Sequence record: OR062947.1
Length of the DNA: 64,000 bases
Source of the DNA: Escherichia phage 348Ecol098PP
Strand: one strand, 5' to 3'
Position 1 is the first letter of the stretch, and every line of letters starts with the position of its first letter. The position numbers were made by a program, and so were the translations under genes. The notes under the pieces were generated by a model, which had not been told where the DNA came from, did no database searches, and worked only from the letters and a program-made list of their open reading frames with translations. Of the stretch, positions 21,129-61,760 are shown piece by piece.

Positions 21129-22711
21129 TATTTTACCTTAATGATATAGTTTAAAGAAATATTCCATGGACGAGTTTCATTTCCAATTAATTCTGGACGA
21201 TTCATGGTATATTTAGAGTTACGCTGAGACGCTGGATCAATTTCATATCCTTCGTTAGTAAAATATGAACGGTTATCCCAGTCAAGTCCTTTACGAGTAC
21301 CAACAAAGTTTGAACGACGAGTATTACCAAATGCACCGGAATCGTCATGTTCACCAAAACCACCAGCATGCTTATGATATGACATCTGTTGTTTTTGCAC
21401 TTCACCAACATATCCACCGGTACAACCTACCGCCAGACGAGGCTTACCGAATTGGTCATTACCATTAACATTAGGGTTAGTTAAATGGTTACCACGACCT
21501 GAGCCGCGAACAAATAATCCACGCATATCAGGCAAGCCTGGGTTAGAAGAGCTACCACCATATCGTGTCCCAATTCTAGAAGCATATACCGGACATTCTG
21601 AAGCAGAAACGGTCCCACCGTGGCAGAAGCGCCAATCAGAACTCGGTAAACTATCTGCAGCCCACATTGTAATAGCGCCAACTGGAAGAATTCGGTCTAA
21701 TTCATTTTGAGTCACAATACGATTGCCTTGAATATAACCACCAGTCATATTGACATTACCAGTTATATTAGCTCCACCAGAACCAACCGTCAATGTATTA
21801 TTAATGCGAAGCGTGCCATTAATAGTTTGTCCGCCTCGTTGGTGGATAACATCAGCATTCCAAGCAAGGGCAGAAGAACCATCACCACCTGATTGGCTAC
21901 CAGCTTGTGTAGTTAAACGAACAACTCCACGTAAAGAAGTTGTAGCACCACGCCCGTTTAATGTTGCGCCGGTCACTACAACTGAAGAGTTGTTACTATT
22001 TACTTCAGTCTGTGTCCCTAGTTTAACGACACCTTTATTAGTTTCTGATGCTACTGAATTCATAAAGGTATAAGGTGAAATTGCATAGCCTTCACGCAGG
22101 GTGCCTTGTTGTGCTTGTGCAACTGTAGCTAAACGAACAACACCTGTAATAGATTCGGTGGCGTCACTATTATTTGGAGCAATTTGTGAAATAAGTTTAA
22201 TTGCTAATTGTTGTGTTTTTAACGGGGTCATTGCCGTTGTATCGTCAGAACCAGCTAATGCCGCAGCAGAAGTTGAAATTTTAATTACACCATTTGTTGC
22301 TTCTGTTGACACTTTTGTCTGAAATACATTGTCTATTTTTTGATTCAATTTAAGCGGAGTAATTGACGCATCGTCAATAGTTCCTGTTACTGCTTCATCT
22401 TCAGTAGCATAACGAGTTAAGCCATATTGAGTTTCGGTTGCATTAGGATATTGTAGACGAGCATTCAGTGTTGCCGGAGTAACAGCTTTACTATTATCTA
22501 ATCCATCAATAACTTCTTGTGGAGTAGCTATTTGAATAATTCCTGGTGTAGTAGTTGTTGCTTCCGGTACGCCATTAACACCTGAAGGAGAAATAGCAGC
22601 TAATGCGGCTTGGACATTAGTGACTGTATCTGGAAAATTCGACCCTGTAGGGTCGAATTCAACGTAAATGGATTCGTTTGAAACGTGTTGGTATGTATTG
22701 TTATTACTCAT
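21128..22711 (-). CDS. 12: Short tail fibre gp12
   Basis: 527 aa (same as T4 gp12), synteny. Confidence 0.85.
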
Positions 22712-39203: not shown

Positions 39204-39241
39204 TTTACAACTTGATAGGACTACTATATCATAGTCCTATC
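39203..39241 (+). promoter_or_regulatory. Early promoter-like element inside a 10-bp inverted repeat GATAGGACTA / TAGTCCTATC
   Basis: aTTTACa 39203-39209; IR arms 39214-39223 and 39232-39241. Confidence 0.45.
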
Positions 39242-39264
39242 AAAATAACCAAATGGAACCTAAA

Positions 39265-39530: not shown

Positions 39531-39560
39531 GTATACAAGCCTATAGGGATATGTTATAGT
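39531..39560 (+). promoter_or_regulatory. Early promoter GTATAC / TGTTATAGT
   Basis: -35-like 39531-39536, 18-nt spacer, TATAGT 39555-39560. Confidence 0.5.
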
Positions 39561-39597
39561 AGTCCTATCAAAACAAATGAGTAAATGGAGAAATAAA

Positions 39598-41033: not shown

Positions 41034-41107
41034 GGCCCTGTAGCTCAACGGTTAGCAGCAGTCCCCTCATAAGGGAAAGGTTACCAGTTCGAATCTGGTC
41101 TGGGTCA
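41034..41107 (+). tRNA. tRNA with anticodon CAU (Ile2/Met type; T4 tRNA-Ile uses CAU)
   Basis: Hand-folded cloverleaf: acceptor GGCCCUG, T-arm ACCAG-UUCGAAU-CUGGU, anticodon loop CUCAUAA; one acceptor mismatch and a weak outer anticodon-stem pair; no encoded CCA. Confidence 0.55.
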
Positions 41108-41113
41108 TATATT

Positions 41114-41189
41114 CGAGGCATAGCTCAGAAGGAAGAGCAAGGACCTTCTAAGTCCTAGGTCGTAGGTTCGATCCCTACTGTCTCGACCA
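41114..41189 (+). tRNA. tRNA-Arg (anticodon UCU)
   Basis: Hand-folded canonical cloverleaf: acceptor CGAGGCA/UGUCUCG, D-arm GCUC-AGAAGGAA-GAGC, anticodon arm AGGAC-CUUCUAA-GUCCU, T-arm GUAGG-UUCGAUC-CCUAC, encoded CCA. Confidence 0.8.
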
Positions 41190-43043: not shown

Positions 43044-43202
43044 ACTTTAATTATTTGGTTCGATGAAAATGAAGAAACATACTGTGTGAATATTGGTGAA
43101 AGTCCAATGCCTGAATTTGAATCCTCAGATAAAAACTCTGTTGTATCTTGGGCTGAAGGTTATAAAGCAGCTAAAGGTGACGTTGAAATAATTTACATCT
43201 AA
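43038..43202 (+). CDS. Small hypothetical protein (54 aa)
   Basis: Below ORF-track cutoff; preceded by the exact promoter/5'UTR cassette also found at 6395-6440. Confidence 0.35.
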   Translation: MTTLIIWFDENEETYCVNIGESPMPEFESSDKNSVVSWAEGYKAAKGDVEIIYI

Positions 43203-43220
43203 GTAAGTTTATGTTATAGT
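43191..43220 (+). promoter_or_regulatory. Early promoter ATTTAC / TGTTATAGT
   Basis: -35 43191-43196, TATAGT 43215-43220; followed by AGTCCTATCAAA box. Confidence 0.5.
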
Positions 43221-43248
43221 AGTCCTATCAAATCAAGAGGAAAACAAA

Positions 43249-43476: not shown

Positions 43477-43511
43477 TTTACAAACTCTTGAGAGCAGAGT
43501 ATAATGCTCTC
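43477..43511 (+). promoter_or_regulatory. Promoter TTTACA / TATAAT with GAGAGC/GCTCTC inverted repeat around the -10
   Basis: TTTACA 43477-43482, 17-nt spacer, TATAAT 43500-43505; IR 43490-43495 / 43506-43511. Confidence 0.5.
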
Positions 43512-43546
43512 ATTGGATAATAAACCACCAATTGAAAGGTAATAAT

Positions 43547-46050: not shown

Positions 46051-46088
46051 GTTTACAACAAGATAGGGCTATGTTATAGTAGTCCTAT
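46051..46088 (+). promoter_or_regulatory. Early promoter GTTTAC / TGTTATAGT with imperfect IR ATAGGGCT / AGTCCTAT
   Basis: GTTTAC 46051-46056, TATAGT 46075-46080. Confidence 0.55.
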
Positions 46089-46108
46089 CAAATTAAATGG
46101 AGTCCACA

Positions 46109-46376: not shown

Positions 46377-47333
46377 ATGATGTTAGTTATTGGTTCTCGT
46401 GCACTTCACTATCACGGTCTTATTGATTCTAGCGCTATCAAAAATAGTGATTGGGACTTTATTGCGGACCAAGGTTCTTGGAATGCATTCAAAAATCAAA
46501 TGATGGGTGTATATGTTCACCAAGATAACCCTAATGTTCAAGTTTTCAAATGCTTCCATAATGGACGCGAAACTCATTTTGAAGCATATATTGTTCCGGC
46601 AATCACTAATGTCCGTGAATTAGTCGGTGAACTCACTCCTGAAGATTTCACGTCTTCTTATGACCTTTTAAAATACGCCAAGAAAAATTTGACTAAAGAC
46701 CGTTTGAACGGGTTTTACTGGGCAACTCCTGAGATATGTCTTGCAATTAAGATGTCTCATCGTTTCAAGAAAAATAATCCATTCTTTTTAAAGACTATGA
46801 ACCATATTCAGTATCTTCGTGGTAAAGGTGTTACACTGAACGATGAACTTACTGAAATTATGCTGAAACGCCAGAAAGAAACCTTGAACTATGCTCACCC
46901 AGTTCTTGACACTTCTAAAAGTGCGTTCTTTAAAGATGACATCTATACATATGACCATGATACTATTCATGAAGCCATTGCACTAACAGACCGTCCAGCG
47001 TATACATTTTATATGAAAGATGGTTCTGAAGTCATGACCTCACGCGAGAAGTTCGAATCGTTACCCGAAATGATTAAACTGGCTGGTGTATACGAAGAAT
47101 CATGTGTACTAGCATTAGAACGTTCTCAAATTCCTAATGACTTTAAAATTAACCCTGAAGCCAGTTTTATGATGGCATTGGAAAAAGTCTGTACAAGCAT
47201 CACCTCCGGTTGGTTCCGTGAATACGCATACGAGAACTATTATGAAGTAGTGGCTATGTATCATAAGCTCGGCAAAAATGATTACGTCAAACGTTTCAAA
47301 CAAAATTTCCATATGGTAAAACCTTTCAAATAA
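46377..47333 (+). CDS. Hypothetical protein (318 aa)
   Basis: Long ORF; N-terminal IGSRAL...SDWDF loosely resembles a nucleotidyltransferase motif (weak). Confidence 0.45.
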   Translation: MMLVIGSRALHYHGLIDSSAIKNSDWDFIADQGSWNAFKNQMMGVYVHQDNPNVQVFKCFHNGRETHFEAYIVPAITNVRELVGELTPEDFTSSYDLLKYAKKNLTKDRLNGFYWATPEICLAIKMSHRFKKNNPFFLKTMNHIQYLRGKGVTLNDELTEIMLKRQKETLNYAHPVLDTSKSAFFKDDIYTYDHDTIHEAIALTDRPAYTFYMKDGSEVMTSREKFESLPEMIKLAGVYEESCVLALERSQIPNDFKINPEASFMMALEKVCTSITSGWFREYAYENYYEVVAMYHKLGKNDYVKRFKQNFHMVKPFK

Positions 47334-47345
47334 CTTCACAAAACT

Positions 47346-47383
47346 GTTTACGCAATTATAGGACTATGTTATAGTAGTCCTAT
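47346..47383 (+). promoter_or_regulatory. Early promoter GTTTAC / TGTTATAGT inside IR AATAGGACTA / TAGTCCTATT
   Basis: GTTTAC 47346-47351, TATAGT 47370-47375; IR arms 47357-47366 and 47374-47383. Confidence 0.55.
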
Positions 47384-47403
47384 TAAAACATGAGGAGAAT
47401 ATT

Positions 47404-47709
47404 ATGAAATTAGGCGAAACCAACCGAATTGGTCTTTTAACAATATTTGCATCACCTTTTTACGCAACTCTTTCTGTTGCAGTATTACAAAAGGCTTACA
47501 GTATGGATGGTGTTCCTGGTTTTGTATTCTTATCACCGTTTTTATTATTCGTCGGAGCTTTGTTATTATATGCCACGACTAGTTTCGACCATAATGTCTG
47601 GGTCAATTATAAATGTAAATTGTCCGAAGAAGAACACGCAGAAGCTCGTAAAAAAGCTATTGAATCTACCAATCTAGAAAATTTCATTAAAGAATGTCGA
47701 GGAAAATAA
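47404..47709 (+). CDS. Small membrane protein with C-terminal ENFIKECRGK tail
   Basis: 101 aa; two hydrophobic helices. Confidence 0.5.
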   Translation: MKLGETNRIGLLTIFASPFYATLSVAVLQKAYSMDGVPGFVFLSPFLLFVGALLLYATTSFDHNVWVNYKCKLSEEEHAEARKKAIESTNLENFIKECRGK

Positions 47710-50359: not shown

Positions 50360-50413
50360 GTTTACTTCCTCCAAGGGTTTTGATACTATACATTCATCAA
50401 CTACTTGGAGGAA
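50360..50413 (+). promoter_or_regulatory. Early promoter upstream of denV with 10-bp IR TTCCTCCAAG / CTTGGAGGAA pairing the -35/-10 spacer with the SD
   Basis: GTTTAC 50360-50365, TACTAT 50384-50389; IR arms 50366-50375 and 50404-50413. Confidence 0.6.
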
Positions 50414-53916: not shown

Positions 53917-53967
53917 GTTTACTTCTCCTCTAGTTGTGTTACTATAGACCTGTCAACTAGAGGAGAA
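53917..53967 (+). promoter_or_regulatory. regB early promoter with perfect 14-bp IR TTCTCCTCTAGTTG / CAACTAGAGGAGAA (spacer vs SD)
   Basis: GTTTAC 53917-53922, TACTAT 53940-53945; IR arms 53923-53936 and 53954-53967. Confidence 0.65.
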
Positions 53968-57154: not shown

Positions 57155-57206
57155 GTTTACTTCTCCTCAGGTTGTGTTATAGTAAACCTTACTTACTAGA
57201 GGAGAA
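57155..57206 (+). promoter_or_regulatory. Early promoter with IR TTCTCCTC / GAGGAGAA (spacer vs SD)
   Basis: GTTTAC 57155-57160, TATAGT 57179-57184; IR 57161-57168 and 57199-57206. Confidence 0.55.
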
Positions 57207-57210
57207 CGTT

Positions 57211-57397: not shown

Positions 57398-57607
57398 ATG
57401 CTTTACGATTATACTGGAAAATCTGAAGACGGTGTACTTGAACTTTTACCTGAAAGTGCTGAAGATGATGATATGACGACGGTGATGTTTTGTAAAAATG
57501 GCCCTGGGGATAAGGGATGGATTTATCTTCGTCAAGAAAATGACTTAATTGTTTTGGACCCTAAACAAGTTGAAGAACTTTATCAACATTTAAAACACAA
57601 TCGGTAG
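57398..57607 (+). CDS. Hypothetical acidic protein
   Basis: 69 aa from MLYDYTGK. Confidence 0.4.
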   Translation: MLYDYTGKSEDGVLELLPESAEDDDMTTVMFCKNGPGDKGWIYLRQENDLIVLDPKQVEELYQHLKHNR

Positions 57608-57645
57608 TTTACAACTTGGTAGGACTATGTTATAGTAGTCCTACC
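57607..57645 (+). promoter_or_regulatory. Early promoter inside IR GGTAGGACTA / TAGTCCTACC
   Basis: GTTTAC 57607-57612, TATAGT 57631-57636; IR 57618-57627 and 57636-57645. Confidence 0.55.
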
Positions 57646-57664
57646 AAAACAAATGGAGAACAAA

Positions 57665-57775
57665 ATGAAACTTTTGCTTATCGCTTATGTTGTAGTACAA
57701 TACAATTATCCGATGTTTACGTATAACATGGTAAATGGTATAATGAATCTTATTGAAGCGAGTATGGTAAAATGA
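57665..57775 (+). CDS. Possible 36-aa hydrophobic peptide
   Basis: Short ORF MKLLLIAYVVVQYNYPMF... directly behind an early promoter stem-loop. Confidence 0.25.
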   Translation: MKLLLIAYVVVQYNYPMFTYNMVNGIMNLIEASMVK

Positions 57776-57887
57776 CCTGTGAACAAGCTAATAAATTGAT
57801 AGATCTTATTTAATTTTTATAGAAATCAGGTTGATGCTCGTCAGAATTATTTGGTGAATTTTGTTGAAACTTTAATTGGTGAATAAT

Positions 57888-61725: not shown

Positions 61726-61760
61726 GTTTACAAGGTCTATGGTTATGTTATTATAGACCT
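61726..61760 (+). promoter_or_regulatory. Early promoter GTTTAC / TGTTATTAT with IR AGGTCTA / TAGACCT
   Basis: GTTTAC 61726-61731, TATTAT 61749-61754; IR 61733-61739 and 61754-61760. Confidence 0.5.

Follow-up and report, generated by a model that had tools for sequence, protein, structure and literature searches.

An early promoter of an RB69-like phage lies within a potential stem-loop resembling the PeSL cassettes of other T4-like phages

The window analyzed here, 64,000 nucleotides of Escherichia phage 348Ecol098PP (OR062947.1), is that of a Mosigvirus, i.e., an RB69-like T4-type phage; the 4 kb around the promoter at 57608 shares 97–98% identity with the Mosigvirus phages F27, moha, APCEc01, and mar005P1 and ~81% with T4. 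This promoter precedes mobD.2, a locus that the syntenic annotation of relatives places in the early region between tk/rI and nrdC. It is of the sigma-70 type, TTTACA-N17-TATAGT with a TG-extended -10 (scan score 10/12), and its -35 is consistent with the T-even early consensus GTTTAC (Nolan 2006, PMC1524935). Twelve nucleotides of the spacer are a perfect complement of the 12 that begin at the last base of the -10, enclosing the rest of that box in the loop of a potential hairpin (Table 1). The sequence-only reading had given the arms as GGTAGGACTA / TAGTCCTACC at 57618–57645, which is how they read, and the full perfect stem extends them to TTGGTAGGACTA (57616–57627) and TAGTCCTACCAA (57636–57647). 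The stretch AG(T/A)CCTATCAA directly 3' of the -10 is found in most early promoters here, not only in the palindromic copies.

Given the usual 7-nt distance from the -10 and the preference for C at -3 to -1 in the RB69 early-promoter logo (Nolan 2006, PMC1524935), transcription is predicted to start at about 57643, within the right arm. The promoter's own transcript, starting downstream of the left arm, would therefore lack the hairpin; read-through RNA and unwound DNA would be the only molecules able to form it. Folded as RNA, the hairpin reaches -20.6 kcal/mol (z -6.1); folded as DNA, the two strands are about equal, at -10.6 and -10.9 kcal/mol. A search of Rfam with the hairpin returned no family match, only one chance miRNA match, whose 18 bits lie far below the gathering score of 50.

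Three further features of the window were noted in passing. Inside the mobD.2 ORF lies another promoter-like site, TTTACG-N17-TATAAT, at 57716–57744. The tk.1-like ORF that follows mobD.2 (57772–57887) carries an internal deletion of ~65 bp, as it does in F27 and moha, when compared with the intact versions in RB69 and mar007P3, and is probably a pseudogene. Two tRNA genes, Met-CAT and Arg-TCT, lie at 41034–41189, as they do in RB69.

Table 1. Positions of the mobD.2 promoter elements, paralogous copies, and other stem-bearing early promoters in the window
Feature	Position	Strand	Basis
-35 hexamer TTTACA of the mobD.2 early promoter	57608–57613	+	read from sequence
Left arm TTGGTAGGACTA in the -35/-10 spacer, about -27 to -16	57616–57627	+	sequence
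8-nt loop TGTTATAG: TG extension and first five bases of the -10	57628–57635	+	sequence
-10 hexamer TATAGT	57631–57636	+	sequence
Right arm TAGTCCTACCAA, about -7 to +5, including the putative start site A 57643	57636–57647	+	
Shine-Dalgarno GGAG (57655–57658) and 36-codon mobD.2 ORF (ATG 57665, stop 57773–57775)	57655–57775	+	relatives' annotation
Paralog, TTTACA, arms TTGATAGGACTA / TAGTCCTATCAA, flipped loop CTATATCA, -10 TATCAT	39204–39243	+	
Paralog, right arm TAGTCCTAT kept, left arm degenerate, no significant fold	39532–39569	+	
Paralog, -10 and right arm kept, no complementary left arm	43192–43229	+	
Paralog, arms GATAGGGCTA / TAGTCCTATC with one G.T (left arm 46062–46071)	46052–46089	+	
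Paralog, 9-bp stem ATAGGACTA / TAGTCCTAT, T.T at the tenth pair, chimeric at an ORF indel	47347–47384	+	
e.6 early promoter, different stem in the same register, TGAGAGCA / TGCTCTCA	43477–43512	+	
nrdC.8 early promoter, stem AGGTCTAT / ATAGACCT	61727–61760	+	
denV promoter (50361–50413), Shine-Dalgarno-pairing arms TTCCTCCAAG / CTTGGAGGAA	50366–50375 / 50404–50413		
regB promoter (53918–53967), Shine-Dalgarno-pairing arms TTCTCCTCTAGTTG / CAACTAGAGGAGAA	53923–53936 / 53954–53967		
Promoter 57156–57206, Shine-Dalgarno-pairing arms TTCTCCTC / GAGGAGAA	57161–57168 / 57199–57206		

The right arm TAGTCCTAT recurs in six promoters of the window (at 39232, 39560, 43220, 46080, 47375, and 57636), and the core TAGGACTA-N8-TAGTCCTA, identical in three of these copies and in many relatives, occurs three times against 0.00 expected from 100 shuffles. 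That most copies are paired, as the sequence-only reading had it, overstates the case: three of the six stems are perfect (9–12 bp), one has a single G.T, and two are degenerate, with no significant stem. The perfect stems fold as RNA at -20.6, -16.3, and -12.7 kcal/mol (z -6.1, -6.6, and -4.5) and the G.T-bearing one at -16.0 kcal/mol, z scores across the four spanning -4.5 to -6.6; neither the 39560 copy (-5.6 kcal/mol, z -0.7) nor the 43220 copy (0 kcal/mol) differs from shuffles. The arms GATAGGACTA / TAGTCCTATC ascribed to the copy at 39214–39241 are confirmed, with 12 bp when the flanking TT/AA is included, and the A-to-G change on the left matched by T-to-C on the right at one pair, which sets the 57618 copy apart from this one, is a real double change. 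The copy at 47357–47383, however, had been misread as AATAGGACTA / TAGTCCTATT: with T at base 47357, its left arm reads TATAGGACTA, and an uncompensated T.T takes the place of the outer pair. At nrdC.8, AGACCT replaces AGTCCT in the right arm and the left arm carries the matching change.

The loop of the 39204 copy (CTATATCA, 39224–39231) is the exact reverse complement of TGATATAG, the loop of the mobD.2 promoter in SA35RD-type phages; the reverse complement of the usual TGTTATAG departs from it by a single base. It looks as though the loop had flipped between its inverted arms, leaving a usable -10, TATCAT, and among 26 sources this state is found in the window only.

Those 26 sources, compared over 20–50 kb of syntenic sequence, comprise 18 Mosigvirus plus T4, UFV13, Shinka, TB004, Bp7, PSD2002, TH54, and KPV15. 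A search with a mobD.1-like protein led to one viral contig, and relatives were instead drawn from GenBank phage records plus one encoding-contig look-up; an exact scan of IMG/VR with a 14-base string (TTATAGTAGTCCTA) was set aside, its matches being mostly chance hits on unrelated contigs. Among the orthologs of mobD.2 there are seven distinct promoters (five Mosigvirus, T4, and UFV13), in which 92.9% of the cells of a 14-pair stem are paired, against 25–62% when the partners are slid by 1–3 columns. Both sides have changed in 5 of the 14 pairs, and in none of 500 shuffles is the count of doubly changed cells, or the covariation score, as high as the one observed. The pair singled out by the sequence-only reading is G-C in three of the seven, A-U in two, and G.U in two, with A-T in moha and mar007P3, G.T in RB69, and G-C in the window forming a series that is paralleled at the e.7-like promoter by A-T in Shinka, G.T in Bp7, and G-C in PSD2002. 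The T4 ortholog has a 14-bp stem, AGTTGACAAGATTA / TAATCTTGTCAACT, with five pairs changed on both sides, and at the equivalent position T4 ipI (TGATGAGGTA / TACCTCATCA) and ipII (TCCTAGAATTGTGA / TCACAATTCTAGGA) carry arms of unrelated sequence.

Close relatives give a different picture. In promoter clusters drawn at 86% identity to a seed (80% single linkage was discarded, as it joined non-orthologous promoters and inflated mismatch counts), one-sided changes produced 13 G.T, 10 A.C, and 7 other mismatches, against 2 double changes. Variable sites make up 32/388 positions in stems and 90/705 outside both stems and hexamers (p = 0.027), leaving stems ~35% less variable. The ratio of G.T to A.C is 13:10 overall, which is not significant (p = 0.34), and 7:1 in the mobD.2 stem alone (p = 0.035). 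We make no claim of RNA-specific selection, for which a hand count of ~14 to 4 had spoken, as the objective count of 13:10 does not bear it out; G.T is not significantly favored overall, and these data single out neither RNA nor DNA as the target of selection. The proposal that secondary structure itself is under selection thus holds up in part. Over the long range of the mobD.2 orthologs pairing is kept, with double changes and covariation at a level that no shuffle equals, which supports the view that pairing rather than a particular sequence is conserved; at short range the signal is weak, with the stem lost from two of the six window copies and the remaining stems only modestly less variable than their neighbors. 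Taken literally, the measure the sequence-only reading had set against itself, an excess of disruptive over compensatory arm changes, goes against it among close relatives, since single-sided changes there far outnumber double ones.

Recombination complicates the reading of double changes, as paralogs that exchange sequence can acquire one in a single step, without pair-by-pair selection. The promoter at 47347 is a chimera: its UP/-35 portion comes from one promoter and its arm/-10 portion from the following one, with the junction between the -35 box and the left arm. This origin explains the T.T mismatch at 47357. In mar007P3, exactly at the site of this junction, there is an extra 66-codon ORF with two flanking promoters (comparison of window 47333–47404 with L123 10415–10754). 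This ORF, between a 318-codon and a 101-codon gene, is present in mar007P3, SA35RD, and others and absent from the window and RB69. Among the 26 sources the flanks of the shared 24-bp core are mosaic, and the mobD.2 promoter of moha has flanks and arms exactly as in the window's 39204 copy (aacttgaTAGGACTA...TAGTCCTAtcaaaa).

Such repeats are common among T-even early promoters. If only perfect repeats of 7 bp or more are counted, with one arm in the spacer and the other between -8 and the start codon, they are found in 8/16 promoters of the window, 8/13 of T4, 10/21 of RB69, and 4/8 of Bp7, compared with 2.5–3.9% for shuffled spacers and 1.9–12.5% for spacers paired with the downstream regions of other promoters, a ~15-fold enrichment over shuffles in the four genomes (binomial p ~1e-9). 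The distribution of pairing is bimodal among 82 distinct promoters, and about half of all early promoters have no stem. A second class, comprising denV, regB, and the promoter of the ORF starting near 57210, has spacers complementary to the promoter's own Shine-Dalgarno; orthologs of this class in T4 and Dhakavirus pair too, with different sequence. For these window promoters, the initiation region is predicted to be less accessible in read-through RNA, at 0.31, down from 0.58. Taken together, the two types give about half of T-even early promoters a spacer that encodes the complement of either their own start-site region or their own Shine-Dalgarno. It is conceivable, though unlikely enough that we put it forward as speculation, that this reflects either a rule by which an early gene is open only on the transcript from its own promoter or, for the type centered on the -10, a DNA hairpin acting in early-promoter shut-off; our literature search found neither idea formulated or tested for early promoters. 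Full-text searches likewise turned up no previous account, PeSLs aside, of T4 early promoters with inverted repeats set around the -10 box.

The exception, the promoter-early stem-loops (PeSLs), was defined in RB49/phi1 (Arbiol 2010, PMC2839356). As described in the relevant passages of that paper, the stem-loop usually lies between the -35 and -10 or overlaps the -10, with G-T pairs drawn in its stems; a Shine-Dalgarno and start codon form the 3' end; and the elements cluster in hyperplastic regions and border ORF indels. One RB49-type PeSL stem-loop reduced lacZ expression as strongly as rrnB T1 (Arbiol 2010, PMC2839356). In its passages on the subject, Comeau 2014 (PMC4122927) extends PeSLs to T4/PST and nt-1/KVP40 and gives the T4/PST promoter as TTTACW-N17-TAYWAT. 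The window element agrees with these descriptions point by point. Its promoter has the ~17-nt spacing and fits TTTACW-N17-TAYWAT except for G at the fifth position of the -10; a 12-bp stem holds the -10 box in its loop; GGAG, an ATG, and the small 36-codon mobD.2 ORF follow; and the subfamily's six copies in the 64-kb window all lie at 39.2–57.6 kb, a region shared with early promoters that bear other stems. The association with an ORF indel, with a chimeric cassette at the junction, is shown for the sister copy 47347 rather than for 57608 itself. One discrepancy is that in the figure legend of Comeau 2014 (PMC4122927) the T4/PST stems lie "just upstream" of the promoter. With every sequence-level feature of PeSLs described in the portions of these papers considered here present, we regard the element as a known kind, in a phage group outside the PeSL papers as represented by those portions.

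The depositors of SA35RD (OL960577) labelled promoter-straddling hairpins of this sort, e.g., at 21546–21587 and 1838–1874, as rho-independent terminators (WebGeSTer/TransTermHP); these labels overlap the depositors' own early-promoter annotations, and the hairpins have no T-tail. At 57608, neither strand has a T-rich stretch beyond the stem (+ tail AACAAATGGAG, - tail GTTGTAAAC) and a terminator scan finds none here. The element is therefore not a canonical intrinsic terminator, and we rejected that assignment for this copy, which lacks the combination of a G+C-rich hairpin and a T-run.

Symmetry might also persist without any selection on structure. In a scenario that we consider fairly unlikely, all copies descend from one ancestral palindromic cassette and the symmetry is renewed by gene conversion, loop recombination, and quasi-palindrome template switching, so that "compensatory" changes come as blocks. 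The match between the moha mobD.2 promoter and the window's 39204 copy fits this, as the A-T/G-C alternative may then be a paralog swap; the G.T of RB69 could similarly have arisen by recombination that brought a GGTA left arm together with a TATC right arm; and the chimeric promoter at 47347, the apparently flipped loop of the 39204 copy, which would indicate DNA-level interaction of the arms, and the nearly neutral-looking changes among close relatives all point the same way. Yet unrelated arms occupy the same position in other promoters and genera (T4 ipI, ipII, and mobD.2; e.6 in the window), which together with the ~15-fold enrichment in four genomes makes descent from one cassette insufficient. 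Nor would a purely mutational process be expected to center repeats on the -10 box, and the somewhat lower variability of stems than of their surroundings also speaks against it. The same loop flip, as a sign of intrastrand or inter-arm interaction in DNA, is compatible with a function at the DNA level, which we rate as quite improbable: a palindrome centered at about -12/-11 could form a cruciform or hairpin that modulates the sigma-70 promoter, e.g., by making the -10 box accessible or inaccessible or by playing a part in early-promoter shut-off, or could be the target of a structure-specific nuclease. Both strands fold equally well as DNA, and the near parity of G.T and A.C overall is what would be expected where both strands matter. 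Precedents exist in the N4 virion-polymerase promoters, which use a hairpin centered near -12, and in an engineered E. coli promoter that Horwitz and Loeb, in 1988, reportedly brought under the control of cruciform extrusion. The mechanism of T4 early-promoter shut-off is, moreover, described as incompletely understood (PMC3014915). Against a DNA-level role, A/T-rich arms of 9–14 bp around an 8-nt loop would be poor cruciform formers, the Shine-Dalgarno-pairing promoters have an obvious RNA-level rationale for a left arm in the equivalent position, and the repeat-less half of early promoters is presumably shut off as well.

Two more specific readings were rejected for the 57608 copy. An operator, in which the inverted repeat would be the site of a dimeric phage or host regulator overlapping the promoter, could account for a core that is identical in three copies and many relatives and whose overlap with the -10 box would suit a repressor. 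It is nonetheless highly improbable: three of the six promoters that share the right arm lack a perfect left half-site, orthologs change sequence yet stay complementary (five pairs between T4 and Mosigvirus), and other promoters of the window genome have unrelated arms. A distance of about 16–20 bp between half-site centers, as here, is also atypical for helix-turn-helix dimers. It is just as hard to credit that the hairpin hides the mobD.2 ribosome-binding site in read-through RNA, confining translation to transcripts from the gene's own promoter. A promoter within a hairpin is the layout of T4 e, soc, 49, and I-TevI (PMC3014915), and the sister promoters of denV, regB, and 57156 do pair their spacer with the Shine-Dalgarno; the right arm at 57608, however, ends at 57647, 7 nt before GGAG, and does not pair with it. 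Predicted accessibility is 0.52 in read-through RNA versus 0.44 in the own transcript for this copy, and the class mean, 0.52 versus 0.61, is the same as for promoters with no repeat.

We therefore return to the PeSL-type cassette, a composite of early promoter and stem-loop, which is probably what this element is and which would likely serve both as a read-through barrier or attenuator and as a recombination repeat. Host sigma-70 RNA polymerase presumably starts at ~57643, yielding an mRNA that would lack the left arm and stay unfolded, whereas read-through RNA from early genes upstream on the same strand would contain both arms and could form a 12–13-bp hairpin (-20.6 kcal/mol) with the -10 in its loop. 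The spacer and start-site region may be the only stretches that RNA polymerase and ribosome leave free to vary, and use of these sole free stretches of a compact intergenic region by the arms would explain why the hairpin straddles the -10. As proposed for PeSLs, it could insulate read-through RNA at gene borders, as a structural barrier or attenuator, and could offer paralogous promoters a short, highly conserved site of recombination by which small ORFs are shuffled. Our analysis shows how the promoter is built, that its flanks are complementary, that this pairing outlasts sequence change, and that such cassettes recombine; formation of the hairpin in vivo, like any effect on termination or RNA stability, would follow from the model, and the barrier/attenuator and recombination-site functions are most likely by analogy with the PeSL family. 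Against this role stand the missing T-rich tail, the dissimilarity of the experimentally tested RB49 stem-loop, the modest constraint on stems and mainly one-sided changes among close relatives, the two of six window copies and about half of early promoters that function with no stem, and the overall absence of the G.T excess expected under sense-strand RNA selection, an excess seen in the mobD.2 stem alone.

On this interpretation, the RB69 group carries the promoter/stem-loop cassettes proposed as drivers of gene shuffling in other T4-like phages, with quantitative support that what persists is the pairing, not a given sequence. Annotators have here a reason against labelling such hairpins simple terminators, and the spacers complementary to Shine-Dalgarno sequences, among others, offer a testable hypothesis on insulation between densely packed early genes. 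The current picture of T4 biology is unchanged unless the DNA-level or the translational reading is true.

Among known systems, the N4 virion RNA polymerase hairpin promoters share with the 57608 promoter an inverted repeat centered near -12 of an early phage promoter. The N4 hairpins have 5–7-bp stems and 3-nt loops and are read, extruded, by a phage-encoded single-subunit polymerase, whereas T4-like phages rely on the host polymerase, and the 57608 promoter is equipped with complete sigma-70 -35 and -10 elements. In T4 e, soc, 49, and I-TevI, hairpins with an internal promoter sequester the ribosome-binding site (reviewed in PMC3014915), and as here the promoter lies inside the hairpin, RNA from upstream folds, and RNA from the proximal promoter lacks the 5' arm. 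Those promoters are late ones, though, and their 3' arm covers the Shine-Dalgarno or AUG, whereas the 3' arm of the 57608 copy is the start-site region and its Shine-Dalgarno is accessible in predictions; that model is the closest functional analogy for the Shine-Dalgarno-pairing class, which denV and regB fit, and not for the 57608 copy. PeSLs, as presented in the passages cited above, differ from the window element in sequence: its stem is based on TAGGACTA / TAGTCCTA and is A/T-rich, with neither poly-G/poly-C nor a T-tail, whereas the RB49 stem-loop tested experimentally is G/C-rich and unrelated to it. In those passages, the RB69 group lies outside the analysis and terminator activity is demonstrated for one RB49-type stem-loop; covariation statistics and an own transcript that would lack the left arm go beyond them. 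The element nevertheless resembles PeSLs in its early sigma-70-type promoter with Shine-Dalgarno and start codon, in a stem-loop that overlaps the -10 or sits in the spacer, in its many repeats in hyperplastic early regions, in stems whose sequence varies while the pairing stays, and in its place at the indel borders of small ORFs.
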